Below the pieces are notes generated by a model, which made no database searches, was not told where the DNA came from, and saw only the letters and a program-made list of their open reading frames with translations. From Acidobacteriota bacterium (lineage in GTDB: Bacteria > Acidobacteriota > UBA6911 > RPQK01 > JAJDTT01): DNA of 64,000 nucleotides. Both the position numbers and the translations under genes were made by a program. Shown piece after piece: positions 26,391-41,161 of this stretch. Position 1 is the stretch's first letter, and every line of letters begins with the position of its first letter. Where the stretch lies: contig OZ220706.1 of NCBI GenBank assembly GCA_965116695.1, positions 706,415-770,414 of the forward strand, given 5' to 3'.

Positions 26391-26614
26391 CCGGGAGCGG
26401 GAGCGATTACGCCGTTTCGGCGAAGGGATTCCGGATTTGCAGTCCGTTTATCCTGAATCCGTGCTGGAGATCCTCCGAATACAGCACCGAGCAATTGGCT
26501 GCCAACGCGGCGCGGCCCCTTGTGTAACACCTGCGGTAGAGTTCGAACGAGTGCATTTGCTTGCAGGGATCGGAAGCGTCGTCAGTGCAGACCAGTACGT
26601 TCGTGGCCAGGAAG

Positions 26615-26839
26615 CTACGGGCGCTCATGAATCTGCTCACGGTCGAATTGCCAGCCTTCCCGGTCGCCTTGGGCTTGATGTGACAGACGAGCCACCTCAG
26701 CGGAAACAACCTCGCGACGCGAATGGTCAGCGAGATCGCTGAGAAAATTCCGTATGGCTTGACTCAAGCTCAACCCCAGAGCAGCAGCCGCTTTTCGAGC
26801 CCGTACAACAATAGCGGCATCTACGGAGAGAGGTAGTTT
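26615..26839 (-). CDS. Small ribbon-helix-helix/antitoxin-like protein
   Basis: MKLPLSVDAAIVVRARKAAAALGLSLSQAIRNFL resembles CopG/ParD-type RHH antitoxins; a possible 73-aa partner ORF overlaps its stop (start about 26628, minus strand) but is unrecognisable. Confidence 0.35.
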   Translation of the reverse strand, partial: KLPLSVDAAIVVRARKAAAALGLSLSQAIRNFLSDLADHSRREVVSAEVARLSHQAQGDREGWQFDREQIHERP

Positions 26840-26900
26840 CATATCAACGCAGGATATTGGTACACGGGTGCTGTGTCGAACGTGGACTGGTCCAGGCCTT

Positions 26901-26968
26901 TCCCCATTTTCTGGTCGTGTCGGGACAACCAGGGATGTAGGGGCGACGTGTGGGTGCCCTCTTTGGTC
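26901..26968. repeat. Half-copy of the 180-bp repeat (left arm only)
   Basis: Aligns to 19322-19390 and 56206-56275. Confidence 0.7.
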
Positions 26969-27131
26969 CTGCGTCATGGCCCCACCCCCGGAGAAGGGCT
27001 AGAATGCTCCTCTGTCGCACTTGGTCCGGCGAGCCACGCCCCGGTCCCGTTACCACGGGAAGTTCGCCACGGAATTATTCCGAGGTCGGATTGCCGAATC
27101 CCAAGGCTCAACACTCCGCGGAGGCACCGTG

Positions 27132-29642
27132 ATGATGACGAACACCCGTTGGCTCGTGGCCACGATCCTGGTCTGCCTGTCTCTTGGACAGGATGTCCGA
27201 TCCCAGGACTCGACCACACCTGTGGATCTGACCCCCTATCTCGTCCAACCGAAAGCCCAGGAGTCGGGTCCGTCCGGATTCCGGTTGACTTTCGTCGACC
27301 AGGCCAGCCACCGGCTCCAATTCCAGTACGGGACTGATGAGGCCGTCGAACTGCAAGTGTCGGTCGGGTACCCGGCGGGAGGAGCCCGAACCCTGCGCCG
27401 GCTCCTGGACCCAATCCCGGAAGACTCTCAGCAAAGTTTCGATCTGGGTCCCCTGCTGGCCCACGGCCCCTACAGCCCGATTCCCGCCTACACCCGCAAG
27501 GGACCCCAGGCCAGAAGCTGGCGTCCCTTGCGCACCGGCTGGTGGGTCGATACCCAGGACGCGGGCAAGTATCTCGTCACCGTCATGGCAAGACGCGTGA
27601 AGGACGGCCAGACCCTGTTTACCACCGACCTGCGCCTCCCGGTCCAGAACTGGGTGGGAGCGGATCTGGACCGACTGGCCTACATCGACGACAACGCCGC
27701 CGAGATCGAGCTCTGGCTGGAGAAGGGCGCACCGGTCTCGGAACTGCCGGTGGAAGTGGATATCGTGCAAGCCCGGACCGGCGTCCGGCGATCCTCCTCC
27801 AGTCCGATCCGCCTCACCCGGGACAGGGTCCGGGTGGGGTTCGACCTCACCGACCTGGAGCCGGCGACCTATCACGTCCGGATCCGGCCCCGGATCGACG
27901 GCCGCCTCTGGGACGACGGCATCCGCCGGGCCCTCTACGTGTTCCGGAACGGGCCGCCGCCCAAACCGGAGCCGCCCATCGAGATCCCGGTGGCTCCCCA
28001 GTTGTTCCTGGACGACTTCCTGATCGACGAACAGCGGAATCTCGAGCGGGTCTTCCATCCGGCCGGCAAGCTGGACGCCCAACCGATCGTCCGCGCGGAC
28101 CGTCCCTGGGAGGGGCACGCGGTCATGGTGCCCGTTGGCTCGAGATACGAATTCAACGCGAAGGAGAATCGCTACGAACTCGAATACATCAGCCTGACGC
28201 CCCGCCACCGGTTGCTGGCCGTCTCCAGCGACGGCGTCCGTTGGACCAAGCCGGATCTGGGCCTGGTGGAGTTCGAGGGATCCCGGGCCAACAACATCCT
28301 GGAGGTCATTCCCCGCGGAAGTCACTTGGACGCGGGCGGCCAATTCGGGGGACTGTGGGACTACCGGACTCGCGGAGTGCCCGATCTTCGGACCGCCAGC
28401 ATGGTCTACACCCCCAAGACCGAGGACATGTTCTTCCTCCGGGGGACGTACCTGATGGTCCGGGACTCGGATGGGACCCGGTATCTCACCACGGAACGGC
28501 CCTTCATGCGGCATCACTCGCAGTTGGAGTCGTTGGACAATCCCAACGACAACCTGGGGCCCATGTTCTACGACGAGCGAACCGGTGAGCTGGTGTTGTA
28601 CTTCGCACCGCATCCTCCGGCCAAGGGGCGGGGTCTGGTTCGCTACGACAACAAGTGGGCGGTCTCGCGGAACCTGGGACGCATGACCACGCGAGACGGC
28701 GTGAACTGGCACCGCAGCTACATCTGGGCGCCGCCCCGGAAGCATCCCAAGCACCAAAGTTACGGAATGCAGCGGGTGAAGCAGATCGGCGACCTCTACG
28801 TGGCGTTCTTTCCCCTCTACGACTGCGAGACGCAGCAGATGGACGTCCATATCTGGGTAAGCCGGAACGGGATCCACTGGGAGGACGTGGGCGGCGATCA
28901 GGCCTGGATCCCCACCGGACCCGACGGCAGCTTCGATCATGGGATCGTCTACAGCCTTATCGACGGGCCGGTGGATGGGGACCGGTCCGAGGCCTTTTAC
29001 CATGGCACGAATACCCTTCACTTCAATGCCTGGATCCTGAACCGGTTGCGGGGAGGGTTGGATGATCCTCCGGTGCCGGCCTCCGAGATCTTCGACGAGC
29101 AGACCTACAACGGACGGCCCTACCTGTCCCCGCCGGCGCCGGTGGGGCCTGGATGGGCCATGTACGACTGCATCTGGAGCTGGCGGCGTCCGCAGTGCAA
29201 CCCGACTATGGAGGAGGTGCGGGAGGCATTCTGGGCCGAGTTGGAGAAGCACACCGGGCAGAACCGGAGCAACCACGTCGAGAAGAGCTGGGAGTACGAG
29301 ATCGTACCGTTCCGCGTGGAGTTTCGGACCAATGGGTTTGCATCGAGGCGGGCTGAAGATCAAACAGGCGTGTTGACGACCCACGCCTTGATATTTCAGG
29401 GAAACCGCCTGACGGTGAACGCCGCGGCCGGCAAGGGCCGAGTGACGGTGGAGGTCCTTGACGAAGAGGGCCGCCCCCTGCCCGGCTATGCCCGCGAGGA
29501 TTGTCTTCTTGAGTCCTTCGACAGCACCCGGCAAGAGGTCAGGTGGCGCGAAAAGTCGAGTCTTGCAGCGCTTAGGGACCAGCCGGTTCGTCTTCGATTT
29601 TACGTCCAGAAGGCTGATCTGTACGGATTTCAGATCCGATAG
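27132..29642 (+). CDS. Secreted LFVDDxLI-family glycoside-hydrolase-like protein, paralogue 2, with a 330-aa N-terminal extension
   Basis: 836 aa; signal peptide; PQLFLDDFLIDE, RPWEGH; C-terminal PVRLRFYVQKADLYGFQIR. Its 3' 1.5 kb is the source of the truncated duplicate at 35175-36038. Confidence 0.5.
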   Translation: MMTNTRWLVATILVCLSLGQDVRSQDSTTPVDLTPYLVQPKAQESGPSGFRLTFVDQASHRLQFQYGTDEAVELQVSVGYPAGGARTLRRLLDPIPEDSQQSFDLGPLLAHGPYSPIPAYTRKGPQARSWRPLRTGWWVDTQDAGKYLVTVMARRVKDGQTLFTTDLRLPVQNWVGADLDRLAYIDDNAAEIELWLEKGAPVSELPVEVDIVQARTGVRRSSSSPIRLTRDRVRVGFDLTDLEPATYHVRIRPRIDGRLWDDGIRRALYVFRNGPPPKPEPPIEIPVAPQLFLDDFLIDEQRNLERVFHPAGKLDAQPIVRADRPWEGHAVMVPVGSRYEFNAKENRYELEYISLTPRHRLLAVSSDGVRWTKPDLGLVEFEGSRANNILEVIPRGSHLDAGGQFGGLWDYRTRGVPDLRTASMVYTPKTEDMFFLRGTYLMVRDSDGTRYLTTERPFMRHHSQLESLDNPNDNLGPMFYDERTGELVLYFAPHPPAKGRGLVRYDNKWAVSRNLGRMTTRDGVNWHRSYIWAPPRKHPKHQSYGMQRVKQIGDLYVAFFPLYDCETQQMDVHIWVSRNGIHWEDVGGDQAWIPTGPDGSFDHGIVYSLIDGPVDGDRSEAFYHGTNTLHFNAWILNRLRGGLDDPPVPASEIFDEQTYNGRPYLSPPAPVGPGWAMYDCIWSWRRPQCNPTMEEVREAFWAELEKHTGQNRSNHVEKSWEYEIVPFRVEFRTNGFASRRAEDQTGVLTTHALIFQGNRLTVNAAAGKGRVTVEVLDEEGRPLPGYAREDCLLESFDSTRQEVRWREKSSLAALRDQPVRLRFYVQKADLYGFQIR

Positions 29643-29838
29643 GCAATTCGTTCGATCACCCAACCTCTGAATAGGAAGGCGATTTCCAGTCGTCCATTCC
29701 TGCGTTCGTTCGCGAATTCATTCCACCCTGCGCTCCTGCGACGACGTTCCCTATGTTCGGCGATCAAAAACCGCCGAACCTTGTCGGCCATTCATCACAG
29801 CCGGCAGTCATGGTTCTGCAGGAAAAGTGCCGGAGTAC

Positions 29839-29862
29839 AAATGAAAATGGATTTCATTTTCA
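29839..29862. promoter_or_regulatory. Fur-box-like palindrome AAATGAAAATGGATTTCATTTTCA
   Basis: 14/19 match to GATAATGATAATCATTATC; lies in a 300-bp AT-rich island upstream of the porin-imelysin operon. Confidence 0.45.
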
Positions 29863-29902
29863 CTTGCACTCCGCCGAGATAGCCCCTACCATAGCGCACG
29901 TT

Positions 29903-29926
29903 AATGAAATTGCATTTCATTTTCAT
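29903..29926. promoter_or_regulatory. Second Fur-box-like palindrome AATGAAATTGCATTTCATTTTCAT
   Basis: Same hexamer-repeat architecture, 64 bp downstream of the first. Confidence 0.45.
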
Positions 29927-30061
29927 CGAGTAACGGAGCCGAAGAGTCTCTTGCCATGGGATCCCGTCTGAGACTCGGGGGGTCAATGGGAGGCATGCGG
30001 AGAGCACTGCCGTAAGGGGTCTTCTCCGCTTCGGGCGGCTTATCCAAAAAAAGGTAGGCGG

Positions 30062-31576
30062 ATGGACGGGAAGAAGACGTTAGCAAGGAGCGGTGTATTG
30101 GGAACGACGAGCGTTCTGCTGCTCGTTGCGACACTTCAGGCTGCCGGACCGCCGGCGGAGAATCGAGACACTCCGGTCTCAAAAGGAGGGACGGACAGCC
30201 GTCAGATCTCCGATCCTGAGGAATTGCTTCAGATCATCGAAGCGCAACAAGAGCAGATCCACGCACTGCAGCGGGCGTTGGACGAACTCCGGGAGCAGGT
30301 GCAGGGCATGGTCGAGCGCCGGAGCCCGGAGACGCCTGCTCCCCGCCGGCCCGGCAGTGAGTTGGCCGAGAGAAAGCCCGGTCCCACCTTCAAGGAGAAC
30401 GTCCGGGGGGACGCCGGTTCCAAATGGGAATTTTCAGGCTACGGGACGATCTTTTACGAAAACTACGACTGGGAAACTCATGCCGACCGTCGGGCGAGAA
30501 CCGACGTCGAGAGAATCCTGATTGAGGCCGAGTACCAGCCCATCGACAAGTTCAAGGTGGAGGTGGAGGTCGCTTTGGAGCATGGGGGCGTCGGCGCCGC
30601 TACGGAGTTCGACGTATTCGAGGAGTTCGGAGAGTTCGAACAGGAAATCGAAAAAGGCGGTGAGATCGAACTCGAGAAGGCACATGCCGAGATCCTGTTT
30701 TCCCGTGCTCTGAGCGTGAAATTCGGGCACGTGATCCTCCCTGTGGGGTTGTTGAACCAACGCCACCTACCATCCCAATACTTCACCGCCGCTCGCGATG
30801 CGACGGCCAGCCCGCTCATTCCCGTCACCTGGCACGAAAACGGTGTCGGTGTTTTCGGCGAGCTGGGGCTCTTCGGCGGCACCTATCTCGAGTATGAGGC
30901 TCAGTTCGTCAATGGCTTGGATTCGACGGGATTCAGTTCGGCGAACTGGATCCGGGGCGGTTTTCAAGAGAGGTTCGAGTACAAGGTGGCCGAGAACCCG
31001 GCCTATGTCTTCAACCTGAACGTCCACCCGACCGCGAGTGCCATGTTCGGCGTCTCCTTCTATCGCGGCAACACGGCCGACAATCGTCCCAAGGATGACG
31101 TGGACTACGACGCGCACGTCAACATCGGCTCCGTGTTCGGAACCTGGGAAGCCGGCGCGATCACTCTACGGGGGGAATATATCCGTGGAACCCTGGAAAA
31201 CTCCGACCTCTTGACGCGGTCCAACCGGCGACTGTCCAACAACCTGGGAGTCGTCCGCTCGCCCGTAGCCCGGGCCGCCGAGTCGGTCTACGTCGAGTTC
31301 GGCTACGACATATCCGAGTGGATCAAGCGCGGTCTCGGCGTCAATCCCGGCCCGCTCGACCTGTTCGTTCGCTATGACCAAGTCGACAGCATGGCCGAAG
31401 TGGAGCCGCTTGTCTTCAAGAACCCCAGATGGGACCGGGAAAGCTGGACGCTCGGCTTCAACTACCGGTTCGCTTCCGGATTCGTAGGGAAGTTCGGACA
31501 TAGCTGGAGGACCTTGGGCACCGCAACGCAAAACCGCGAAAACACTCTCTCAGCGGGAGTTGCGTACGAGTACTGA
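30062..31576 (+). CDS. Outer-membrane beta-barrel porin with an N-terminal coiled-coil segment
   Basis: Signal peptide; heptad-like EELLQIIEAQQEQIHALQRALDELREQVQGM; alternating beta-strand pattern; ends GVAYEY. Confidence 0.55.
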   Translation: MDGKKTLARSGVLGTTSVLLLVATLQAAGPPAENRDTPVSKGGTDSRQISDPEELLQIIEAQQEQIHALQRALDELREQVQGMVERRSPETPAPRRPGSELAERKPGPTFKENVRGDAGSKWEFSGYGTIFYENYDWETHADRRARTDVERILIEAEYQPIDKFKVEVEVALEHGGVGAATEFDVFEEFGEFEQEIEKGGEIELEKAHAEILFSRALSVKFGHVILPVGLLNQRHLPSQYFTAARDATASPLIPVTWHENGVGVFGELGLFGGTYLEYEAQFVNGLDSTGFSSANWIRGGFQERFEYKVAENPAYVFNLNVHPTASAMFGVSFYRGNTADNRPKDDVDYDAHVNIGSVFGTWEAGAITLRGEYIRGTLENSDLLTRSNRRLSNNLGVVRSPVARAAESVYVEFGYDISEWIKRGLGVNPGPLDLFVRYDQVDSMAEVEPLVFKNPRWDRESWTLGFNYRFASGFVGKFGHSWRTLGTATQNRENTLSAGVAYEY

Positions 31577-31604
31577 TCGTTCCAATCGAAAGGAGAAAAG
31601 AGAA

Positions 31605-32930
31605 ATGAGGCGTTCAATTTTAATGGTGGCAGGCTTAGCCATGCTTTGCAGTTCGTGGTCCCAGGGTCAGATCCGGCCGCCGGTCTATTCGGTGATCACC
31701 GAGGGCACGAAGGTGACGCTCTACTGGGACGATGTCGAGGGGGCGGACGGATACCGCGTCTACTACGCTCCGTATCCGGATGCAAACCCCATCGGTTTCG
31801 TGGACTTCGGTCCGGATGTCACCACGGTGGCTACCGACCAGCAAGAGGGCGCGCACTACTATTCCGCCGTCACGGCGAAAAAAGGCGAGGAGGAAAGCGC
31901 CTGGTCGAACATCGAGATCTTCCACGCGACGTCGCTGGATCCTGCCGATGCAAACGCCACCGAAGCTGAAATCATCTCGAATGTCGCCCAAACGGTCATC
32001 GCGGCAGACTATGCCGAACTGGAGAGACGCGCCGCAGTTCTGCTCAATACGGTCTACGCCGTCAGCTTCGACACCTCCGACGACAACCTCCTGGAGGCTC
32101 AACAGGCCTGGCGTAACGCCCGGCGGGCCTGGGAGCAGACCGAAGCGTTCCTGTTCGGCCCCGTGGACACTGCGGGCCTCGATCCGGCCATCGACAGTTG
32201 GCCGGTCAACCGGGTCGATCTGGATGCGGTGTTGAACAGCGACAACGTTCTCACCGAGGACTTCGTGGCCAACTTGGACGATACGCTGAAGGGCTTTCAC
32301 ACCATCGAGTACCTGCTGTTTGGTGTCGGCAGCGCCAAGCCTGCGTCGGAGCTGACCGCGAGGCAGAAAGAATACTTGGTGGCGGCTTGCCTCAACCTGG
32401 CGTCGGCCACGAAGACTCTGGCGGATGGCTGGCGGTCTGGAGAAGGAAGTTATCTCGCCGAGTTCGTCAATGCCGGAACCACCAGCACCATCTACACCAG
32501 CACGACTTCGGCTCTTCAGGAATTGGTTGAAGGGATGGGTATCATTGCCGATGAGGTCGGCAACGGAAAGATTGCGGACCCCTTCGACGAGAGGAACACG
32601 GAACTGGTGGAGTCCCAGTTCAGCTACAACTCGATCATGGACTTTGCCGACAATATTCGGGGCATTGAAAACGTCTACATTGGCCGCTACCTGCACAATG
32701 ACGGTCCTGGACTCGACGATCTGGTGAAGCGGACCAACGCTGAATTGGATCAGAAGATGCGCACTGCGATAACGACGGCCATCAGCGAGATTGAGAAGAT
32801 CCCGTACCCCTTCAGGGACGCAATATCGACAGACGAGGGGCGCGCTCAAATTGATACTGCCCAGGAAGCGGTGATCGATGTGCAGTTGCTGATCGAAGGA
32901 GAGCTGCTCAGCCACGTGCTGGGTCGGTAG
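31605..32930 (+). CDS. Imelysin-like (peptidase M75/IrpA/EfeO-like) periplasmic protein with an N-terminal Fn3-like domain
   Basis: GxHxxE imelysin signature (LKGFHTIEYLLFG); N-terminal VTLYWDDVEGADGYRVYYAP Fn3-like strand; SD sequence AGGAG before the ATG. Confidence 0.7.
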   Translation: MRRSILMVAGLAMLCSSWSQGQIRPPVYSVITEGTKVTLYWDDVEGADGYRVYYAPYPDANPIGFVDFGPDVTTVATDQQEGAHYYSAVTAKKGEEESAWSNIEIFHATSLDPADANATEAEIISNVAQTVIAADYAELERRAAVLLNTVYAVSFDTSDDNLLEAQQAWRNARRAWEQTEAFLFGPVDTAGLDPAIDSWPVNRVDLDAVLNSDNVLTEDFVANLDDTLKGFHTIEYLLFGVGSAKPASELTARQKEYLVAACLNLASATKTLADGWRSGEGSYLAEFVNAGTTSTIYTSTTSALQELVEGMGIIADEVGNGKIADPFDERNTELVESQFSYNSIMDFADNIRGIENVYIGRYLHNDGPGLDDLVKRTNAELDQKMRTAITTAISEIEKIPYPFRDAISTDEGRAQIDTAQEAVIDVQLLIEGELLSHVLGR

Positions 32931-32965
32931 GTCCGCCGGGGACAGGCGCGTTTCGATGACCGACG

Positions 32966-34579
32966 ATGAGATTCAAGTTCTGCATCGCGACAGTCTCAAT
33001 TGGCATCATGGTGAGCGTCGCCGTCGCGCTCACCGGGGACGACGCGCCTGCCCTCACGGTTTCTCAAGACGGGTCTACCATCACGGCCGAATGGACGGCC
33101 GTGAGCTGGGCCGAAGGTTATATCCTCGTCTACGCTCCATTCCCGGAGTTTCAGCCTGTCCACGGTCTCGACCTGGCTTTGCGCCGCAGCCATTCGTTGC
33201 AGTTGGGAGATCTGGACAGCTACGTGATGGCCGTTTTCCCGTATCGGGAGTATGTGCGGCTCAACGCGGTCTCGAATATCGTCGTGGCCGAATTGGATCC
33301 TGCCCTTTCGGGCGGTGAAACGACCGCCTTCACTCCCACCAGCAACGCTTTCTCTACGCCGGCTCCGAACTTGTCCGATGAGGGCGGGGTACGTCACCGC
33401 GAGGGTGACAAGGATTTCGGGGCGGTTTTCGTGACGGCCCCGGCGCCGGTCAATTCCGGGTTGGGTCCCGTCTTCAATCACAACTCCTGCGAGTCCTGTC
33501 ACCCGAAGGACGGGCGAGACGCCGCGCCGGAACACGGCGAGGAAATGGACACCATGTTTCTCCGTCTGAGCCTGCCCGGGTCCGATCCTCATACGGGCGA
33601 GGCAATCCCGGTTCCGGGATTCGGAACGCAACTGTTCACCAAGGCCATTTTCGGGACGGAGCCGGAAGCGACGGTGACCGTCACATACGAGGAGGAGACG
33701 GTCACGTTGGCGGGCAGCGGCGTGGAAGTGAGCTTGCGGACACCCTCCCATACCGTTGAATCATCCACCGATTTGCCGGCGGATACGTTGTTTTCGCCGC
33801 GGGTCGGACCACCCGTATTTGGCCGGGGCCTGCTCGAGGCGATACCGGCGCATACAATCCTGGCGATGGCCGACGAAGAGGATGCGGACGGCGACGGGAT
33901 TTCAGGGCGCGCCAATTTTGTCTGGGATCCGGAGCAGCAGCAGACCGTGCTCGGACGTTTCGGGTTGAAGGCGAACAACCCGAATCTGCGATTGCAAGCC
34001 GCTGCGGCATACCATAACGATATCGGCATCACGTCCCCGGTATTCGTCCAGGAGAGCTCCACGGGCCAAGTCCAGGACGACCTCCTGGACGACGATCCCG
34101 AAATCGACGAGGAAACTCTTCAGGACGCGACCTTCTACGTCCAGACGTTGGGCGTTCCGGCGAGGCGCGACGTCGATTCCCCTGAAGTCCAACTTGGACA
34201 GTACGTCTTTGCTCTGGCCAACTGCCACAGTTGCCACGTGCCGGTGCTGAAGACCGGGGACTTCCCGGTCGCCGAGCTGGCCCACCAGGTGATCCGCCCA
34301 TACACGGACATGTTGTTGCATGACATGGGACCGGGACTGGCCGATCTCCGGCCGGATTTCCTGGCCACCGGCAGCGAATGGAGAACCCCTCCCTTGTGGG
34401 GCATCGGCCTGACCAAGGTCGTGAACGGTCACACTTCGTTTCTGCACGACGGCCGCGCCAGGAACCTGCTCGAAGCAATCATGTGGCACGGGGGAGAAGC
34501 GGAAGAATCGCGCCTGTTCGTAGAGGATCTGTCCAAGCGCGAACTGGATGCCCTGCTGGCGTTTCTCAACTCGCTTTAG
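32966..34579 (+). CDS. Di-haem cytochrome c peroxidase-like protein (DUF1111, so-called thiol oxidoreductase, the usual imelysin partner)
   Basis: Two CxxCH motifs (NSCESCH, ANCHSCH); CCP/MauG-like C-terminus LDALLAFLNSL; N-terminal Fn3-like TITAEWTAVSWAEGYILVYAP. Confidence 0.65.
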   Translation: MRFKFCIATVSIGIMVSVAVALTGDDAPALTVSQDGSTITAEWTAVSWAEGYILVYAPFPEFQPVHGLDLALRRSHSLQLGDLDSYVMAVFPYREYVRLNAVSNIVVAELDPALSGGETTAFTPTSNAFSTPAPNLSDEGGVRHREGDKDFGAVFVTAPAPVNSGLGPVFNHNSCESCHPKDGRDAAPEHGEEMDTMFLRLSLPGSDPHTGEAIPVPGFGTQLFTKAIFGTEPEATVTVTYEEETVTLAGSGVEVSLRTPSHTVESSTDLPADTLFSPRVGPPVFGRGLLEAIPAHTILAMADEEDADGDGISGRANFVWDPEQQQTVLGRFGLKANNPNLRLQAAAAYHNDIGITSPVFVQESSTGQVQDDLLDDDPEIDEETLQDATFYVQTLGVPARRDVDSPEVQLGQYVFALANCHSCHVPVLKTGDFPVAELAHQVIRPYTDMLLHDMGPGLADLRPDFLATGSEWRTPPLWGIGLTKVVNGHTSFLHDGRARNLLEAIMWHGGEAEESRLFVEDLSKRELDALLAFLNSL

Positions 34580-34805
34580 CTGCCCCGGTCGTCAACGAGT
34601 CTGCCGTCGAGGCCGGATTCGTAGATCCAGCTCGAGAAGAACACTGCAGTCGGCGGGGATGCCAACCCTTCCGGAAAGGTCGCGGCACGCACGGGCCTGA
34701 ACCACCGCAACCCGGATCGGTCCATTACGAGATGGCGTAGAAGGAGAAGTATCAAGAGGAGAGACAAAGGTGGGATTAGAGGTGGAAAGCGTTAGTGTGA
34801 AGATC

Positions 34806-35135
34806 ATGTCTCGGCGTGTCTGGACGGTGGAAGGCAAGGGTCTGGATGAGTCGCAGTCGTGGAGTTTTGACCATCGGGAGGACGCCGAGTGGTTTCGAGA
34901 TGTGGTACGGGAGTACTGGAATGCCCAATGCCCGAAATGTGGCATGGAGAATATGTTGGGCCTTGATGTGAGTGGTGAACATTTGTACGGATGGACCGTC
35001 TTGGTTTTCTGCGGTTACCACACATGCAGCTTTGCCAAGAGTATTGTCTCTTTCGGCGACCCGACCCGTGCCGTCGGGGACCCTTCCGCCAGCCGGTCGT
35101 CGAACGGATTCGAGCAAGTTTCGAAGAGAAGATAG
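34806..35135 (+). CDS. Small hypothetical protein with a CPKCG...C..H.C zinc-ribbon-like motif
   Basis: ORF only; purine-rich leader upstream; no family recognised. Confidence 0.25.
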   Translation: MSRRVWTVEGKGLDESQSWSFDHREDAEWFRDVVREYWNAQCPKCGMENMLGLDVSGEHLYGWTVLVFCGYHTCSFAKSIVSFGDPTRAVGDPSASRSSNGFEQVSKRR

Positions 35136-35174
35136 CAGTCCGCTTCTCCCCACCTATCTTCCTGTCTCCAACTG

Positions 35175-36038
35175 CATCCGCAACCGATCGTCCGCGAAGA
35201 CCGGCCCTGGGAAAGGCACGCGTTCATGGTGCCCGTTGGCTCGAGATACGAATTCAACGAGAAGGAGAACCGCTACGAACTGGAATACATCAGCCTGACG
35301 CCCCGCCACCGGTTGCTGGCCGTCTCCAGCGACGGCGTCCGTTGGACAAAGCCGGATCTGGGCCCGGTGGAGGAGGGCCGGTCCGAGGCGTTCTACCACG
35401 GGACGGATACCCTTCACTTCAACGCCTGGATCCTGAACCGGTTGCAGGGAGGGTTGGATGATCCTCCGGTGCCGGCCTCCGAGATCTTCGACGAGAAGAC
35501 TTATAACGGACGGCCCTATCTGTCCCCACCCGCACCGGTGGGACCGGGATGGGCCATGTACGACTGCATTTGGAGCTGGCGGCGGCCGCAGTGCAATCCG
35601 ACCATGGAGGAGGTGCGGGAGGCCTTCTGGGCCGAGTTGGAGGAGTACACTGGACAGAACCGGAGCAACCACGTCGAGAAGAGCTGGGAGTACGAGATCG
35701 TGCCGTTCCGCGTGGAGTTTCGCACCAACGGGTTCGCGTCGAGGCGTGCTGGGGAGCAGGAGGGTGTGCTGACGACCCACCCGCTGATCTTCCAGGGGAG
35801 CCGAATAACGGTGAGCGCCGCGGCTGGTGGGGGTCAAGTACCGGTAGAAGTCCTGAACGAAGGGGGCCGTCCCCTGTCCGGCTACAGTCGGGATAAGTGT
35901 CAGTTGCCAGCCTTCGACAGCACCGAGCAGGAGGTAACCTGGACCGGGAAATCAGATCTGGCTGAGTTACGAGGCCAGCCGGTTCGCCTCCGATTCCACC
36001 TTCAGAAGGCCGATCTCTATGGATTTCAGATCCCATGA
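35175..36038 (+). pseudogene. Truncated, internally deleted duplicate of the 3' half of the gene at 27132..29642
   Basis: Nucleotide homology 35175-35370 to 28073-28267 and 35375-36038 to about 28980-29642, about 90% identity. About 720 bp are missing at a GGTGGA microhomology. No N-terminal half or signal peptide. Confidence 0.8.
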
Positions 36039-36101
36039 ATCGTATGTGTTAGAGGAGGAGCGTTTCTGCATAAGCACCTCCACACTATTTGCAATGGTGG
36101 G

Positions 36102-36641
36102 TTATATAGTGCGCGGAGACCAACCCAGATGGGATTCAATTTCTCTACGACCGACCGTATCAATTTGTAATGGCGCCCGTTCGATATATTCCTTCGCAAT
36201 ATCCCGTTTTGGACCCGTAAGATTAGAAAGGTATTTGACGACGTCACTGCGGGATATGTTTGGACGTAGAGCTGTCCACACCACGTGGTCAATGCTCCGG
36301 GACTCAGCCCATGAACTGAGACCAACAATGGTGCTTGACGGAAGTTCTAGCCTATTCTGGGTTCGGTTGTAGTGTCCTATCAATCTCTCTGCGTTGCCAT
36401 GTTTGATACGTTCGCGAGCTGCTAGTTCTTTCTTTGCTTCATGCGGCGTTTCAACGGTCATGAGTGTCCACAAACTGCGAACGAGTTGTGCTTTGGGGTG
36501 CAGGACAAGAGTAATGCGACCGTCACGTGATCTGCGGGTGAACTCTGCTCTCAATAGTGGTCCATCCATATGCCATTGCCGATGGATTGGTAATGCGCGT
36601 GGATTCCAAATAAGAGAACCCCAACCTAAACATGCAATCAA
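36102..36641 (-). CDS. ChaC/gamma-glutamylcyclotransferase-like protein on a 48%-GC island
   Basis: N-terminal MIACLGWGSLIWNP matches the ChaC [FW]GYGSL[IM]WNP motif; downstream segment order resembles ChaC; strongly atypical base composition. Confidence 0.45.
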   Translation of the reverse strand: MIACLGWGSLIWNPRALPIHRQWHMDGPLLRAEFTRRSRDGRITLVLHPKAQLVRSLWTLMTVETPHEAKKELAARERIKHGNAERLIGHYNRTQNRLELPSSTIVGLSSWAESRSIDHVVWTALRPNISRSDVVKYLSNLTGPKRDIAKEYIERAPLQIDTVGRREIESHLGWSPRTI

Positions 36642-37157
36642 CTACTTCCACTCGCCGTAGATTGAACTCAACGGGCCGGGTGCACTTGCATCTAGTACGG
36701 CACATTATATCGCTGGCTCACGCATTGACGATAGCAATGGTGACGGAAATACTTGGGCCAAACGACATAGGCATATTTCACGAGATATTCGAACATTCCA
36801 AGAGGGATAGGAAAACTGTCCTTTTCTCCGGTCCCGCTCAATTTGGGGGTTGCTGCTGCCGCTCCGCTGAATAGGAGCCGAACCTGTTGCGAATGCCAGC
36901 GACCAACATCTCCTCGCCGTTGCTCGGAACTGAGAATTCAGTTCGGCCCGTTTCCTGGCGCCATGCGGCAGAGCATCAAATCGGTTCGAGCAAGTCTCAT
37001 ATTGTTCAAGTCAACAAATGGAAGGTCGGATGTCCTTTGAACACAGCCAGTTGTCGGAATCCGGGGTTCAAGGTAGAATTTTGGCAGTCATTTACTGTTG
37101 CACAGCCTTTTCTGTTTGTTCCAGCCTTACCGGACAGACTCCGGGGGGTGATTTCAG

Positions 37158-39728
37158 GTGAGTTCCTGCCGACAACACGTCTCAGACCTGATCTTCCGGA
37201 TTCTCACAGCTACACTTGGAATCCTGTTGCTCATCGGTAGTGCTCTCCTCGGAGCCCCTCCCACAACCGAACAGACCGAGTTCTTCGAGTCGAAAATCAG
37301 GCCGCTACTGGCACGAAACTGCTACCAGTGCCACAGCGAACAGGCAAAGATCCTGTACTCGAACTTGCGAGTAGATGACCGAGCCGCCTTGCTCAATGGC
37401 GGGACTCGTGGACCGGCAATCGTCCCCGGCGACCCGAACTCTAGCCAAATCATTCAAGCAGTCCGCTTCGAGAACCTGGAAATGCCTCCGGATGGAAGGT
37501 TGTCGGAGGACCAGATCGACGCGTTGGTCAAATGGGTGGAGATGGGTGCACCCTGGCCGGATCTGGCGGTCGCCGGCGGTGCCACGACCTCCAACGGGCA
37601 GACGAACCCGGCCGCAGGTCAGAGCCACTGGGCCTGGAAGCCGGTGCAAAAGGTCTCTGCGCCCCCGGTCCGGGACAAAGCCTGGCCAACCGATCCCGCA
37701 GACAACTTTATTCTGAGGAAGCTTGAGGCCGAGGGTCTGGCTCCCTCCCCCGAGGCTGCCCGTTACGCGCTTTTGCGTCGGGTTTACTTTGATCTGATCG
37801 GTCTTCCTCCGGAACCCGAAGTCATCGAGTCCTTCGTCACCGATAATTCCGAACTCGCCTTTGAGAAGGTCGTGGACCAACTCCTGAGATCTCCCGGATT
37901 TGGCGAACGCTGGGGACGGCACTGGCTCGATCTGACCAGCTACGCCGACAGTCTCGGCCAGGGACGCCGCATCCCCGCCAGGGAGGCCTGGCGATATCGC
38001 GACTACGTCATCAACGCGTTCAATTCCGACAAGCCCTACGACCGCTTCGTTCAGGAGCAGATTTCAGGCGACGTGCTCCCTTGGAAGACCGACGACCAGC
38101 GCCGAGAGCAGCTCGTGGCCACCGGCTTCCTGGCCATCGGACCCTGGGCGGTCGTGGATTCCGACAAAGAGAAACTCCGCATGGACGTCGTGGACCACCA
38201 GCTCGACACGCTGGGCCGGGCCCTTCAGGGATTGACCCTCGGTTGCGCCCGCTGCCACGACCACAAGTTCGATCCCATCCCCACCCGCGAATACTACGCA
38301 TTGGCGGGAATCTTCCGCAGCACTCGAACACTCAACGGCCGCATGAGCGGCGGCTTCAGCGACGTCAACCGGGTGTTGCTGCCGGAGACCCCATCCGAGA
38401 TGAGGAAACGCGCCCTGGCCACGGAGGAATACCAACAGGCCCTGGACAGGTTCCTGAGCGAATATGAAGCCGTCGAATCCGAAAAGAAGCGCCTGACCGA
38501 CCGGCAGAAAACGCTCGAAGAGGCAGCAACCGAAGCCAAGGCGGCACTCGAGAAGGAACTCAAGGAAATCAACAAGAAGCTCAAGGAAGCAAAGGACCGG
38601 ATCAGACTGCTGGAGTTCCGGCGGCCGGGTCCGCCGATGGCCATCGCCGTCCAGGATCGGGCGGTCCCCAAGGACAGTCGCGTCAACATCGGCGGGGATC
38701 CGCACAATCTCGGCGAAGAAGTTCCGCGAGGGTTTCTTTCAGTCGCTTCACCTGCCAAGGCGGGCCGCATCGACAGTCATCGAAATCTGAAAGGCTTGTA
38801 TGAGGGATTCCAAAAATCGAGCGGCCGCCTGGAACTGGCCGAATGGCTCATCGACCCGCAGAACCGGCTGCTGGCCAGAGTCATGGTCAACCGGATCTGG
38901 CATCATCTCTTCGGCGCCGGCCTGGTCCGGACGGTCGACAATTTCGGCGCCGGCGGCGAGCCGCCCAGCCATCCGGAACTGCTCGACTACCTCGCCACCC
39001 GCTTCGTCGAGCTGGGATGGTCCGTCAAGGGCATGATCCGCGAAATCGTTCTCACTCGGACCTACCGCCAGGCCAGCCGTTACAATTTGAAAGGCCACGA
39101 GGTCGACCCGGACAACCGCCTGCTCTGGCGGGCCAATCGCCGGCGTCTGGAGGCGGAAGCCTATCGCGACTCCGTGCTGGCCATCAGCGGAGCCCTGGAC
39201 CGCACCCGGGGAGGCCCTACCCTGCCCCTGGACATCCCTGAGAGTATCGCGTTGGGTTTTCCCACGGCGCTGACGCAGGACGCCAAGGTGAACGACGAGT
39301 TTCTGAATCGTCGAACCATTTACCTGCCGTCGGTGCGCAAGAATCAGCTCCCGCAGCTCGACCTGCTGAATCTCTTCGATTTCCCCGATCCCGATCAGAC
39401 CATCGGAGCCCGGTCGGTCACCACGGTCCCCACACAGAGCCTCTTTCTCATGAATTCTTTGTTCCTCCGGGAGCAGGCTCTGCTGACGGCCCGCACCCTC
39501 TTGGAGTCCGGAGGTCCGGACGACAAAACGCGGGTCTCCGGTTTTTTCCTGCGAGCCTTGAACCGGCCCGCCACAGAGCAGGAAGTGGACCAGGCGCTGG
39601 ATTTCATCGCGAAATTCCAAGAGAAGCTGGGCCGCCTGCCGGAGGCTTCCGGCAATTCGCGCCTCAAAGCCTGGGCGCGTTACTGTCACTCCATATTCGC
39701 GTCAAACGAATTCCTTTTTCGAGGATAG
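37158..39728 (+). CDS. PSCyt1/PSCyt2/PSD1 (DUF1549/DUF1553) secreted protein, module 1
   Basis: Signal peptide, then CYQCHS (Planctomycete cytochrome C domain); second CxxCH (CARCHDHKFDPI); coiled-coil linker; followed by a DUF1501 gene. Confidence 0.8.
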   Translation: MSSCRQHVSDLIFRILTATLGILLLIGSALLGAPPTTEQTEFFESKIRPLLARNCYQCHSEQAKILYSNLRVDDRAALLNGGTRGPAIVPGDPNSSQIIQAVRFENLEMPPDGRLSEDQIDALVKWVEMGAPWPDLAVAGGATTSNGQTNPAAGQSHWAWKPVQKVSAPPVRDKAWPTDPADNFILRKLEAEGLAPSPEAARYALLRRVYFDLIGLPPEPEVIESFVTDNSELAFEKVVDQLLRSPGFGERWGRHWLDLTSYADSLGQGRRIPAREAWRYRDYVINAFNSDKPYDRFVQEQISGDVLPWKTDDQRREQLVATGFLAIGPWAVVDSDKEKLRMDVVDHQLDTLGRALQGLTLGCARCHDHKFDPIPTREYYALAGIFRSTRTLNGRMSGGFSDVNRVLLPETPSEMRKRALATEEYQQALDRFLSEYEAVESEKKRLTDRQKTLEEAATEAKAALEKELKEINKKLKEAKDRIRLLEFRRPGPPMAIAVQDRAVPKDSRVNIGGDPHNLGEEVPRGFLSVASPAKAGRIDSHRNLKGLYEGFQKSSGRLELAEWLIDPQNRLLARVMVNRIWHHLFGAGLVRTVDNFGAGGEPPSHPELLDYLATRFVELGWSVKGMIREIVLTRTYRQASRYNLKGHEVDPDNRLLWRANRRRLEAEAYRDSVLAISGALDRTRGGPTLPLDIPESIALGFPTALTQDAKVNDEFLNRRTIYLPSVRKNQLPQLDLLNLFDFPDPDQTIGARSVTTVPTQSLFLMNSLFLREQALLTARTLLESGGPDDKTRVSGFFLRALNRPATEQEVDQALDFIAKFQEKLGRLPEASGNSRLKAWARYCHSIFASNEFLFRG

Positions 39729-41161
39729 TGATCATGAACCTCCCGCTTCACCGAAATTTGACGCGCCGCCGTTTCCTGCGATCCTCCGCCTGCGGATTCG
39801 GGTCAGTGGCGCTGGCCGCCATGTGCTCCGAGCAGGCTGCGGCCGCGGCCGGCCCCCTGGCGCCGAAGGTTCCGCATCTTCCGCCCCGAGCCAAGCGCGT
39901 GATCTTCATGTGGATGGCGGGCGGCCCTTCCCAGCTCGACATGTTCGACTACAAGCCGCGGCTGGCGAAAGAGAGTGGAGAAGCCATCCCCTACGCGATT
40001 CCTGACGGGGTCGGAATGGATTTGAGCCGCCTCATGGGGCCGATCTCCCCGATGCGGCCCCGGGGACAGTCCGGGATGATGCTAACCGACTGGCTGCCCC
40101 ACATGGCGAAGCACGCCGATGAGTTGTGCCTGCTCCGGGCCATGCAGGCGGACAACGAAGCTCATGCCCCCGCGGCACGGCAACTGCACACCGGCGATCC
40201 CCGCCTGATTCGTCCGTCCATGGGATCGTGGGTCGGGTACGGGCTGGGAACCGAGAACCGGAACCTGCCCAGCTTCATCACCATCTGTCCGCTCCTCGTA
40301 GGCGACACCGGGAACGTCCAGTTTTTCGGGAATGCGTTCCTCCCCGCCATCTACCAGGGAACGGCGCTGGGAAACCGGGCCACCGGCGCCGGGAAGGCGG
40401 TGTTTCGCTATATCGAGGATCCGAGCCTGCCTGTCGAGCTGCAGCGCGATCAGGTGGATTTCATTCAGCAGATGAACCGGGCGCACCTGCAACAGGTTCG
40501 AGCCGACCGCCAGATGGAGGGACTCATCCAGTCCTTCGAGCTGGCGTTTCGAATGCAGTCGGAGGCTCCGGATCTCATCGACCTGTCGTCCGAGTCCAAG
40601 GCCACGCTCGATCTCTACGGTATCGGCCAGAAAGAGACCGACGAATTCGGACGCCAGTGCTTGCTGGCGCGCCGCTTCGCCGAAGCCGGTGTGCGCTTCA
40701 TTCAGATCACCTCGAGCGGCTGGGACCATCACGAAGCCATCGGCAAGGGTCTTCCCAGGAAGTGCGCCAACATCGACAAGCCCACGGCCGGCCTGATCAC
40801 CGACCTCAAGGCCAGGGGACTGTTCGACGACACCCTTCTGGTCTGGTCAGGTGAGTTCGGGCGAACCCCCCACTTCGAGGACTTCTCCTTCGGAGACAAA
40901 TCCCAATACGGCCGGGGACACAACCCCGAAGGGTTCTGCGCCTGGATGGCCGGCGGCGGCGTGCGCGGGGGCATGGTCCACGGCGTCACCGACGAGTACG
41001 GTCTCCGGGCCGTCGACCAGAAGGTGCACATCCACGACCTGCACGCCACGATCCTCCACCTTTTGGGCCTCGACCACGAAAGGTTGACCTACCGCTACAG
41101 CGGTCGAGACTTCCGCCTCACGGACGTCTACGGGCGGGTGGTGAAAGAGATCCTCGCGTGA
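39728..41161 (+). CDS. DUF1501 family protein (sulfatase-like, Tat signal), module 1
   Basis: RRRFLRSSA Tat motif; MWMAGGPSQLDMFDYKP and GEFGRTP hallmarks; start overlaps the upstream stop. Confidence 0.8.
   Translation: MIMNLPLHRNLTRRRFLRSSACGFGSVALAAMCSEQAAAAAGPLAPKVPHLPPRAKRVIFMWMAGGPSQLDMFDYKPRLAKESGEAIPYAIPDGVGMDLSRLMGPISPMRPRGQSGMMLTDWLPHMAKHADELCLLRAMQADNEAHAPAARQLHTGDPRLIRPSMGSWVGYGLGTENRNLPSFITICPLLVGDTGNVQFFGNAFLPAIYQGTALGNRATGAGKAVFRYIEDPSLPVELQRDQVDFIQQMNRAHLQQVRADRQMEGLIQSFELAFRMQSEAPDLIDLSSESKATLDLYGIGQKETDEFGRQCLLARRFAEAGVRFIQITSSGWDHHEAIGKGLPRKCANIDKPTAGLITDLKARGLFDDTLLVWSGEFGRTPHFEDFSFGDKSQYGRGHNPEGFCAWMAGGGVRGGMVHGVTDEYGLRAVDQKVHIHDLHATILHLLGLDHERLTYRYSGRDFRLTDVYGRVVKEILA

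Follow-up and report, generated by a model that had tools for sequence, protein, structure and literature searches.

A partial second copy of a glycoside-hydrolase-like gene at a defence-island hot spot in an uncultured Acidobacteriota bacterium, and its likely origin

Why should a genome carry, some 5.5 kb downstream of an intact gene, a diverged 3′ piece of the same gene, with a conserved operon lying between the two? The locus that raises this question is in a stretch of 64,000 nucleotides of Acidobacteriota contig OZ220706.1 (assembly GCA_965116695.1, positions 706,415 to 770,414), referred to here as the window. Its intact gene, P, encodes a glycoside hydrolase (GH)-like protein of 836 residues; the partial copy, referred to here as the fragment, occupies window positions 35175–36038. 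A first-pass annotation had taken the fragment for a decayed duplicate. Judged from the sequences of the window and of related loci, it most likely belonged to an allele that once functioned and was stranded only recently, and is not a local duplicate long in decay.

The fragment and its parent gene

A search for direct repeats across positions 26,500–37,500 aligns the fragment with P in three co-linear blocks, all in the same direction and in register: 28071–28271 pairs with 35172–35372 (93% over 201 nt, offset 7101), 28965–29264 with 35361–35660 (90% over 300 nt, offset 6396) and 29515–29640 with 35911–36036 (75% over 126 nt, offset 6396). The fragment copies part of the 3′ 1.57 kb of P in direct orientation, as the first-pass annotation had proposed, and BLAST comparisons with orthologous genes bear this out with E-values of 1e-54 to 1e-130, far beyond chance. 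The features concerned are as follows.

27132–29642, + strand: P, full-length GH-like gene, 836 aa (translation, profile, AlphaFold2, Foldseek).
28074–28265, + strand: block A of P, homologue of fragment positions 35175–35366, codons 315–378, first propeller blade (93% identity, synonymous divergence dS 0.20).
28266–28970, + strand: segment of P absent from the fragment, 705 bp, most propeller blades (model residues 105–339; offsets, junction alignment).
28971–29642, + strand: block B of P, homologue of fragment positions 35367–36038, with the last propeller strand, linker, β-sandwich and stop (90% identity falling to 68–75% in the last 300 nt).
35175–36038, + strand: fragment (repeat search, alignment), with an annotated open reading frame (ORF) at 35226–36038.
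35361–35372, + strand: deletion junction, microhomology GGGCC(C)GGTGGA (both offsets match).

Homology between fragment and P begins at about 35165–35180, corresponding to codon 315 of P, and ends exactly at the P stop codon. Within these limits codons 315–378 are fused in frame to codons 614–836 and the stop; the 705 bp missing between them (7101 − 6396) are exactly 235 codons, and this in-frame deletion is the only indel. Both parental registers match across the junction over GGGCC(T/C)GGTGGA, and the peptide encoded across it is KPDLGPVEEGRSEAF. A deletion of about 720 bp at a GGTGGA microhomology had been proposed, of which the deletion and its microhomology hold in the alignment and the size does not. 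Overall identity is also lower than the suggested 90% or so: 132 differences over 861 aligned nucleotides give 84.7% (93, 90 and 75% in the three blocks), the first 540 nt standing at about 92% and the last 320 nt at about 70%.

In P itself, an N-terminus resembling a signal peptide and about 275 residues of unique N-terminal sequence come before a five-bladed propeller like those of GH32, GH43 and GH130 and a C-terminal β-sandwich. The protein has no match in Pfam or NCBIfam. A profile built from 60 homologues matches, in the Protein Data Bank (PDB), GH130 phosphorylases (7fip, 3e-13; 9fj8, 1e-12), a carbohydrate-binding protein (6n1a, 5e-15) and GH32 invertases (about 1e-9), and 13 of the 60 homologues match Pfam Glyco_hydro_32N. 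The AlphaFold2 model of P has a predicted template modelling score (pTM) of 0.81, and Foldseek searches with it return GH32, GH43, GH62 and GH117 chains at probability 1.00 and E-values down to 6e-10. The GH-like label given earlier is upheld by profile, model and Foldseek as a description of fold only, namely a predicted five-bladed propeller followed by a β-sandwich. An exhaustive protein search found 5,738 relatives, most of them 450–520 aa long and matching residues from about 275 to 836; of all parts of the protein, the β-sandwich tail is conserved most widely across this family, which counts more than 5,700 members. A public collection contains the exact P protein, whose cluster at 90% identity has 100 members.

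In the fragment the parental frame stays open for 287 codons from the upstream stop (35136–36038), with neither stop nor frameshift. An ATG at 35226, with the purine-rich stretch GGGAAAGG 10 nt upstream, opens an ORF of 270 aa (35226–36038), which is public protein record P0001 under NCBI and ENA sources. This protein is recorded on two contigs, probably of one assembly; the exact sequence was not located in the contig index, and its 90%-identity cluster has one member. In the AlphaFold2 model of the ORF the C-terminal β-sandwich is well predicted (predicted local distance difference test score, pLDDT, 94–98), the N-terminal 150 residues are poorly predicted, and the overall pTM is 0.49.

What the fragment keeps is one blade (codons 315–378), the last strand, a low-confidence linker and the sandwich. 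P residues 1–314 and 379–613 are gone, leaving the propeller incomplete, and the N-terminal signal-peptide-like segment is absent, in agreement with the earlier statement that the promoter-proximal half and signal peptide are missing. Because residues 1–314 (with the signal peptide) and the 235 codons of most blades have been lost, the fragment ORF, on the predicted architecture, cannot encode the P enzyme. The GC content of the fragment is 0.62, and no promoter-like site was found upstream of it. The term gene remnant is apt in the sense of a 5′-truncated, internally deleted partial copy whose start context and essential domains are gone.

The notion of decay fares differently. Differences between fragment and P fall 29/24/79 on the three codon positions; by the Nei–Gojobori method the ratio of non-synonymous to synonymous divergence (dN/dS, or ω) is 0.17, with dS increasing along the sequence, from 0.2 at the 5′ limit of the homology up to 1.6 at its 3′ limit. 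Over 28074–29399 dS is 0.39 and ω is 0.11, compared with 0.37 and 0.14 for P of the window against its orthologue in related locus L008. A neutrally decayed local duplicate beside a constrained parent would be expected to show a dN/dS of about 0.55–0.6. Because dN/dS is 0.11–0.17 and the changes are mostly synonymous, most of the divergence accrued while both sequences were part of working genes. The description of the fragment as a decayed duplicate is not supported by this dN/dS (0.17, and 0.11 outside the tail), the freedom from stops and frameshifts, and a tail of another allelic class (see below); duplication in place followed by decay was rejected on the basis of dN/dS and the tail phylogeny.

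The back-calculated neutral time of the fragment is about zero, with an upper bound of about 0.02 dS units (genomes sharing the gene order of the window, the B order described below, differ by 0.2–0.45). Among 12 alleles, private substitutions of the fragment number 14 synonymous and 26 non-synonymous (ω 0.58), compared with 118 and 95 for the orthologues (Fisher p 0.024), a contrast that is biased and was down-weighted, because the excess lies within the last 87 codons, a stretch with saturated synonymous sites. With the tail set aside the counts are 10 and 10 (ω about 0.3, not significant). In simulations the frame remains open after 40 neutral substitutions with a probability of 0.18. Because the frame is open and ω is low, the fragment is either very young as a pseudogene or under selection.

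The insert, two gene orders and a hot spot

Related loci were collected from two sources. A scan of species-representative genomes gave 16 loci, all in Acidobacteriota metagenome-assembled genomes (MAGs), of which 8 are orthologues of P (88–90% amino-acid identity) and 8 are copies of a 70% paralogue that each relative also holds elsewhere (L009–L014, L017, L018); ENA and Logan (SRA-derived) contigs gave ten more. The distant paralogue was rejected as the source of the fragment, which is only 59–72% identical to it and 81–89% identical to orthologues. Two gene orders are found between fixed flanks, a reverse-strand PQQ gene with P on one side and a reverse-strand GFO gene on the other.

A order: P, variable region, PSD, DUF1501, porin–imelysin–DHOR, GFO (L003, L005, L022; partly L001, L004).
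B order: P, porin–imelysin–DHOR, Zn-ribbon gene, variable region, PSD, DUF1501, GFO (window, L007, L008, L019, L023–L026).

The two orders amount to a swap of the PSD–DUF1501 and porin–imelysin–DHOR blocks, and the Zn-ribbon gene is restricted to the B order, where it lies at the new junction. In the window the blocks and the DNA around the fragment are arranged as follows, with the DUF1501 gene of the PSD block at 39728–41161; with respect to the imelysin operon, this block is placed differently in the two orders.

30062–34579, + strand: porin–imelysin–DHOR operon, with a porin-like gene of 504 aa and DHOR being DUF1111, flanked by the two stretches of P homology (PF09375, 4e-66; PF06537, 2e-107).
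34770–35135, + strand: Zn-ribbon-like ORF, 121 aa, only in B-order genomes (ORF, synteny).
35141–36879, no strand: 1,739-bp segment absent from clean B-order sites (junctions of L008, L024, L025 and L026).
36102–36641, − strand: cargo gene, 179 aa, in 49%-GC DNA, with a GWGSLIW motif (promoter-like site 36731–36704).
36880–37157, + strand: conserved PSD-upstream region, right border of the hot spot, with the motif TCAAATCGGTTCGAGCAAG at 36976–36994 (alignment of relatives).
37158–39728, + strand: PSCyt1/PSCyt2/PSD1 gene, here 'PSD' (Pfam, synteny).

The Zn-ribbon and fragment ORFs lie in one frame, split by a single TAG.

The fragment is absent from all seven other B-order loci (L007, L008, L019, L023–L026), leaving the window alone among eight. 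In L008 and L024 window position 35140 is joined straight to 36880, that is, the Zn-ribbon gene to the PSD-upstream region, and in L025 and L026 position 35144 is joined to 36909; L019, L007 and L023 carry other inserts at the same site. The insert of the window, 35141–36879, consists of about 27–40 nt of unique DNA, the fragment and a low-GC gene. The two copies of P sequence do bracket the imelysin cluster as direct repeats, as the repeat search confirms. Because the clean sites differ from the window by the 1,739-bp insert, the imelysin cluster is not the inserted DNA of the event that made the fragment; an earlier suggestion that the cluster had inserted into the 3′ end of P is not supported by the eight loci that share this order, seven of them without the fragment. 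An intact second paralogue at the position of the fragment, which would have refuted the first-pass reading, was found in no relative.

The low-GC gene, referred to here as the cargo gene, has no match in Pfam, NCBIfam, PADLOC, PHROGs or PDB, and no homologue in any related locus. Its protein has one match only in the JGI metagenomes, at 52% identity on a contig of 1.7 kb (L027, 74–1057). In L027 this homologue adjoins a fragment whose sequence, judged by eye, resembles the C-terminal end of tyrosine integrases. The island had been described as 48% GC with a ChaC-like gene; the composition is right (48–50%), and the ChaC label finds no support in the five collections named, only the GWGSLIW motif recalling that family.

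The borders of the insert carry few marks. There are no terminal inverted repeats at them (the best inverted match is 6 nt) and no transposase in 35141–36879; the best direct repeat near the ends is the 6-nt TCCGCT, within chance expectation. The insert was rejected as a passenger of a transposon or insertion sequence (IS), there being no inverted repeats, target-site duplication or transposase. No recombinase domain was found in any ORF between 29643 and 37157, and no att core: the longest exact matches (65, 49 and 47 nt) lie inside the coding homology, and the borders share nothing. The left junction, which runs from just after the Zn-ribbon gene to P codon 315, is non-homologous. At the other end of the fragment homology stops at the stop codon and cargo starts there, a boundary between P and cargo that is the same in A-order loci.

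In every case the variable region lies directly upstream of PSD, and its contents differ by genome: AbiJ; AAA_21 ATPases with DUF4435; a reverse transcriptase with IS elements; SIR2 with IS1595; TIR-STAND; McrBC; a methylase with an IS element; and transposases. The GC content of six variable regions (L003–L007, L015) is 0.49–0.57, and that of the cargo segment in the window is 0.49. This PSD-upstream region (L001–L008, L015, L019, L023) is a defence-island hot spot. The suspicion that P stands next to PSD in related genomes proved correct for some of them, as L003, L005, L001 and L004 have P, a short variable spacer and PSD. Beyond PSD the window has a DUF1501–GFO junction of the B kind, collinear with L025 and L019. 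L022, the one A-order locus that reaches this junction, has an FG-GAP gene there, which is missing from the B loci examined.

A second, independent remnant of P occurs in L001 (9730–10582), where codons 553–836, frameshifted, lie 3.7 kb downstream of an intact P. Between the two are a gene of 210 aa, a transposase and an AAA_21/DUF4435 gene, and after the remnant come older cargo and then PSD; the tail of the remnant is 77% identical to the resident tail of L001. A sensitive blastn search (word size 7) of the other hot-spot regions found P remnants in L001 only. Among the short 'proteins' of the P family in public metagenome gene calls (P0002–P0017), several are pieces of frameshifted genes. 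In L002 (8062–10570) a frameshift splits P into 643 and 189 aa, one piece being P0004; P0002 is part of the frameshifted remnant in L001; and several further short homologues show out-of-frame stretches in their sequence. Homologues of 160–194 aa were for this reason discarded as conserved short forms, both of those checked in context (P0004, P0002) being frameshift pieces, and such pieces in gene calls can mimic conserved short forms. In L024, a contig of 2x coverage, gene calling breaks the imelysin gene in two and cuts the DHOR gene short.

Tail alleles and the origin of the fragment

The last part of P was compared in 12 loci over window positions 29401–29642 and the orthologous positions.

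29401–29642, + strand: resident P tail, of the allelic class common to B-order genomes (neighbour-joining tree, identities).

In the neighbour-joining tree of the last 240 nt the five B-order genes analysed (those of the window, L008, L019, L023 and L007) form a clade with 94% bootstrap support, and the fragment falls outside it. B-order tails are 85–90% identical among themselves and 68–81% identical to all others; non-B tails are 68–85% identical to each other, even where the gene bodies are 96–99% alike (L008/L016, L004/L006, L001/L002/L015). The tail of the fragment is 71–76% identical to every other tail. Only three sites fully distinguish B from non-B tails, and the fragment has the non-B base at two of them; these are too few alone, and the assignment to a tail class rests on distances and bootstrap. 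Synonymous divergence separates the comparisons further.

Non-B pairs: tail dS (last 80 codons) 0.68–1.42; gene-body dS 0.09–0.19.
B pairs: tail dS 0.22–0.43; gene-body dS 0.21–0.45.
Fragment and other genes: tail dS 0.84–1.30; gene-body dS 0.38–0.55.

Across these comparisons ω is 0.14–0.29, and 0.14–0.23 in the tail. High tail dS is found only where P abuts the hot spot, as a 5- to 10-fold jump in the last 80 codons, with ω there at 0.14–0.21. Where it abuts, the P tail appears to be exchanged together with hot-spot cargo and to belong to old allelic lineages. In genomes whose imelysin operon stands between P and the hot spot, the tail is, by these distances, evolving like the rest of the gene. 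By the same measure the tail of the fragment is of the hot-spot-abutting kind, and it stands next to cargo at its stop codon.

The remainder of the fragment has other affinities. Its first 311 nt are sister to resident P (98% bootstrap, 5 exclusive shared sites), and in the region 29093–29400 it lies in a clade with the genes of the window, L008 and L016 (85%). The gene body of L016 is sister to that of B-order L008 (100%, 48 exclusive sites), with a non-B tail. The 48 sites that L008 and L016 share exclusively all lie up to 29093 and none after, the breakpoint being beside a GC-rich palindrome at 29116–29159. An attempt to name a single donor or nearest relative by sliding-window identity failed, the locus being a mosaic.

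The explanation we favour, at about even confidence, is that the fragment is a stranded border piece of hot-spot cargo imported from a strain in which P abuts the hot spot. The donor would have been a closely related strain contributing a segment that runs from the 3′ part of P through the cargo gene to the PSD-upstream region, and the recipient a clean B-order chromosome. The right side would have joined in or at the PSD-upstream region; the left arm, made of P sequence, had its partner 5.5 kb away across the imelysin operon and would have made an illegitimate join immediately downstream of the Zn-ribbon gene. Such a result would be of the kind known as homology-facilitated illegitimate recombination (HFIR). 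The 705-bp microhomology deletion would have occurred during or after import. The fragment would then be a non-functional passenger, a young pseudogene, and its bracketing of the imelysin operon a by-product.

Several observations lead to this proposal. The donor is likely to be a close relative because the 5′ 311 nt of the fragment are sister to resident P; genomes in which P of that clade abuts the hot spot exist, since the body of L016 is sister to L008 and its tail is non-B; and a single insertion into a B chromosome suffices because the DUF1501–GFO junction of the window is of the B kind. A stranded border fragment is possible at this site because the left neighbour of the hot spot changes while PSD stays. 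Consistent with HFIR, the site is empty in relatives and the insert combines foreign DNA with DNA of a flanking gene. The import model needs one event and fits the empty sites, the tail class, the low ω, the foreign cargo and the B-kind junction.

Other points weigh against import. No donor locus with P, the cargo gene and PSD was found, the sole cargo homologue being the 52% match on the 1.7-kb contig. Positions 36972–37325 are nearest to B-order relatives (80–87%), the sampled A-order genomes giving 65–80%, so that an imported tract cannot be seen next to PSD and the right junction, like the left, may be illegitimate. Recombination has made the locus a mosaic whose nearest relative changes along its length, and polarity for this reason cannot be proved; the 5′ similarity to resident P could stem instead from gene conversion after insertion; the intact frame of 270 codons and low ω would also fit a selected, expressed ORF; and the lineage is represented by a single genome.

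Polarity could in principle be the reverse, which we regard as unlikely. An A-order lineage would have received a B segment that displaced the native 3′ part of P and its old cargo downstream, by recombination within P on the left and an illegitimate join at codon 315 on the right, so that the fragment would be the native tail and the intact tail the import. C-terminal displacement of this kind would account for the resident tail lying in the B clade as sister to the L008 tail (73–100% bootstrap) and for the 5′ part of the fragment being sister to resident P (98%), and L001 has the same layout with other content (full P, cargo, a P fragment of codons 553–836, older cargo, PSD). Sequential displacement is proposed for type VI secretion system (T6SS) effector and Rhs loci in PMC5361080, citing PMC2935791. 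However, extra events would be needed to remove the old imelysin copy and the FG-GAP gene and to rebuild a B-kind DUF1501–GFO junction. The duplicated 5′ block differs by about 7% (dS 0.20) where near-identity would be expected, unless the crossover lay upstream of codon 315, and the gene-body tree groups the window, albeit weakly (60%), with B-order L008, which fits a B order acquired by descent.

Whatever its origin, the 270-aa ORF could be a selected, working gene for a β-sandwich and linker, perhaps co-transcribed with the imelysin/Zn-ribbon operon, although we consider this distinctly unlikely. The frame is open for 287 codons with no small indels and a large deletion that is in frame, ω is 0.11 outside the tail, and private substitutions there (10/10) are not significantly more relaxed than in orthologues; against this, a very young fragment would be expected to show an equally low ω, the probability of no stop after 40 neutral substitutions is 0.18, and a deletion falls in frame by chance in one case of three. 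The sandwich is predicted at pLDDT 94–98, whereas the N-terminal 150 residues are poorly predicted and pTM is 0.49. The ORF follows the Zn-ribbon gene on the same strand after 90 nt and has the purine-rich GGGAAAGG before its ATG, but it has no promoter-like site upstream and no signal peptide, although P looks secreted. It is recorded as a protein under NCBI and ENA sources; the 270-aa form occurs in no other genome, its 90%-identity cluster has one member, and the short homologues checked in context (P0004, P0002) are frameshift products. The pooled private substitutions (14/26 compared with 118/95, p 0.024) also speak against a working gene, with the bias of the saturated tail.

It is improbable that the fragment is an old relic of the rearrangement that created the B order, whether by tandem duplication and losses or by a circle integrating in Campbell fashion, retained in this lineage only. 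A swap of blocks between fixed flanks is what duplication followed by loss would produce; the succession of fragment, spacer and PSD reproduces the A-order junction; and the two kinds of clean-site junction (35140/36880 and 35144/36909) are as independent deletions would give. With B-order dS at 0.2–0.45, however, such a relic should show dN close to dS on its own branch, as well as stops and frameshifts, whereas ω is 0.11–0.17 and neither stops nor frameshifts are seen. Duplication within a genome would also give identical tails, and these are 71% identical (dS about 1.0, ω 0.23). Loss would be required in the seven other B loci, and the Zn-ribbon gene at the junction would be unexplained, A-order L022 having none.

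More speculative still, and with a low probability in our estimation, is that the last 80 or so codons of P travel with defence cargo as 'tail-plus-cargo' modules by one-sided replacement, and that stranded modules are kept as expressed or re-usable spares. A chimeric join of reads from A-order and B-order strains is very improbable: the source, in which the ORF is recorded on a contig of 5.34 Mb, is evidently a MAG, as are all the relatives, strains of both orders are likely to co-occur in such communities, and the short-read contig L016 ends almost at the end of P, but copies 15% diverged are not a collapsed or duplicated repeat, the left junction and the 705-bp deletion are non-homologous joins that an overlap assembler does not make, and the 270-aa protein is recorded on two contigs, albeit probably of one assembly.

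Neighbouring sites, related systems and significance

Several smaller features lie around these genes. The 19-mer TCRAAYSGRTTYGAGCAAG occurs at 35100–35118, in the 3′ end of the Zn-ribbon ORF, and at 36976–36994, upstream of PSD, where 0.05 such repeats are expected; the copy at 36976–36994 is conserved across all aligned relatives of both orders. The 19-mer may have a role in regulation or be a trace left by the block swap. A homologue of the Zn-ribbon protein (68–70% identity) is found on a TARA Oceans contig (L020, 5393–5686) among IS1595, HicB-like and ParA-like genes. In the AT-rich region upstream of the porin–imelysin–DHOR operon, which is conserved in both orders, two palindromic, near-identical 23-mers, AATGAAA(A/T)TG(G/C)ATTTCATTTTCA, lie at 29840–29862 and 29903–29925, 63 nt apart, where none is expected. 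The pair resembles paired operator sites, possibly of the Fur type, a suggestion made because the operon is iron-related.

Scars with an intact gene and a displaced 3′ remnant are known from prophage integration. Integration of e14 or phage 21 at E. coli icd leaves a duplicate of the 3′ end, the icdC pseudogene. As here, an intact gene and a diverged 3′ remnant form a direct repeat beyond the inserted DNA, with divergence that is mostly synonymous because both ends served working genes. Unlike that case, the present locus lacks both an integrase and an identical att core (at 65 nt, its longest exact match is inside the coding sequence), its repeat is ten times longer, and the DNA between the copies is a conserved chromosomal operon and no prophage. 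An integrase-mediated island of the e14/icd type was therefore rejected for want of a recombinase and an att core.

Integration hot spots, defence islands among them, are flanked by core genes with raised diversity at the flank. The PSD-upstream site resembles them in holding unrelated defence systems in each genome at one intergenic position and in the dS jump at the end of a core gene. It differs from the usual hot spot in being tied to PSD, with a left neighbour that changes between two gene orders.

A close mechanistic parallel is HFIR (de Vries & Wackernagel 2002, PMC122324; Prudhomme et al. 2002, PMC122325; both as cited in PMC5361080), which is reported from E. coli conjugation in PMC3240628. 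On the import model the locus would share its one-sided homology with an illegitimate join on the other side; also in common are pieces of flanking genes, short or no microhomology at the odd junction and an empty site in relatives. Unlike those cases, the present locus is known from its sequence, with the PSD-side crossover inferred, and its stranded arm is unusually long, at 1.57 kb before the deletion.

Displacement of C-termini, with orphan 3′ fragments, is known from Rhs, contact-dependent inhibition (CDI) and T6SS effector loci (Jackson et al. 2009, PMC2935791, as cited in PMC5361080) and is described for T6SS effectors by Kirchberger et al. 2017 (PMC5361080). Common to these and to the present locus are a full gene followed by a 5′-truncated 3′ copy with another tail allele and its own cargo, a conserved body with a diverged tail, and recurrence, in L001. 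The P tail is not, however, a swappable toxin domain as in those systems: it is a homologous β-sandwich with about 70–80% nucleotide identity and ω of 0.14–0.23. The cargo consists of defence or mobile genes and not of cognate immunity genes, and none of the Rhs/CDI demarcation motifs PxxxxDPxGL, VENN and DPxG[LW] was found at the locus. An Rhs/CDI-type toxin locus was rejected on the homologous tails and the lack of a demarcation motif.

The fragment is thus most likely a fresh example of a known recombination by-product, an ordinary scar and not a novel type of element. For annotation, the 270-aa record most probably represents part of a gene and ought to be left out when members of the family are counted. 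A caution of method follows for diverged duplicates: where the differences are mostly synonymous, they are to be taken as two alleles that have come together and not as decay in place. If the tail-plus-cargo modules were real, they would constitute a C-terminal-displacement system outside polymorphic toxins. The fragment marks a PSD-tied defence hot spot and a polymorphic swap of operon blocks in uncultured Acidobacteriota, in which turnover of the island also draws in the end of the core gene next to it. Of more interest than the fragment are this PSD-anchored hot spot, the swap between A and B orders, and a gene tail that hitch-hikes with the cargo.

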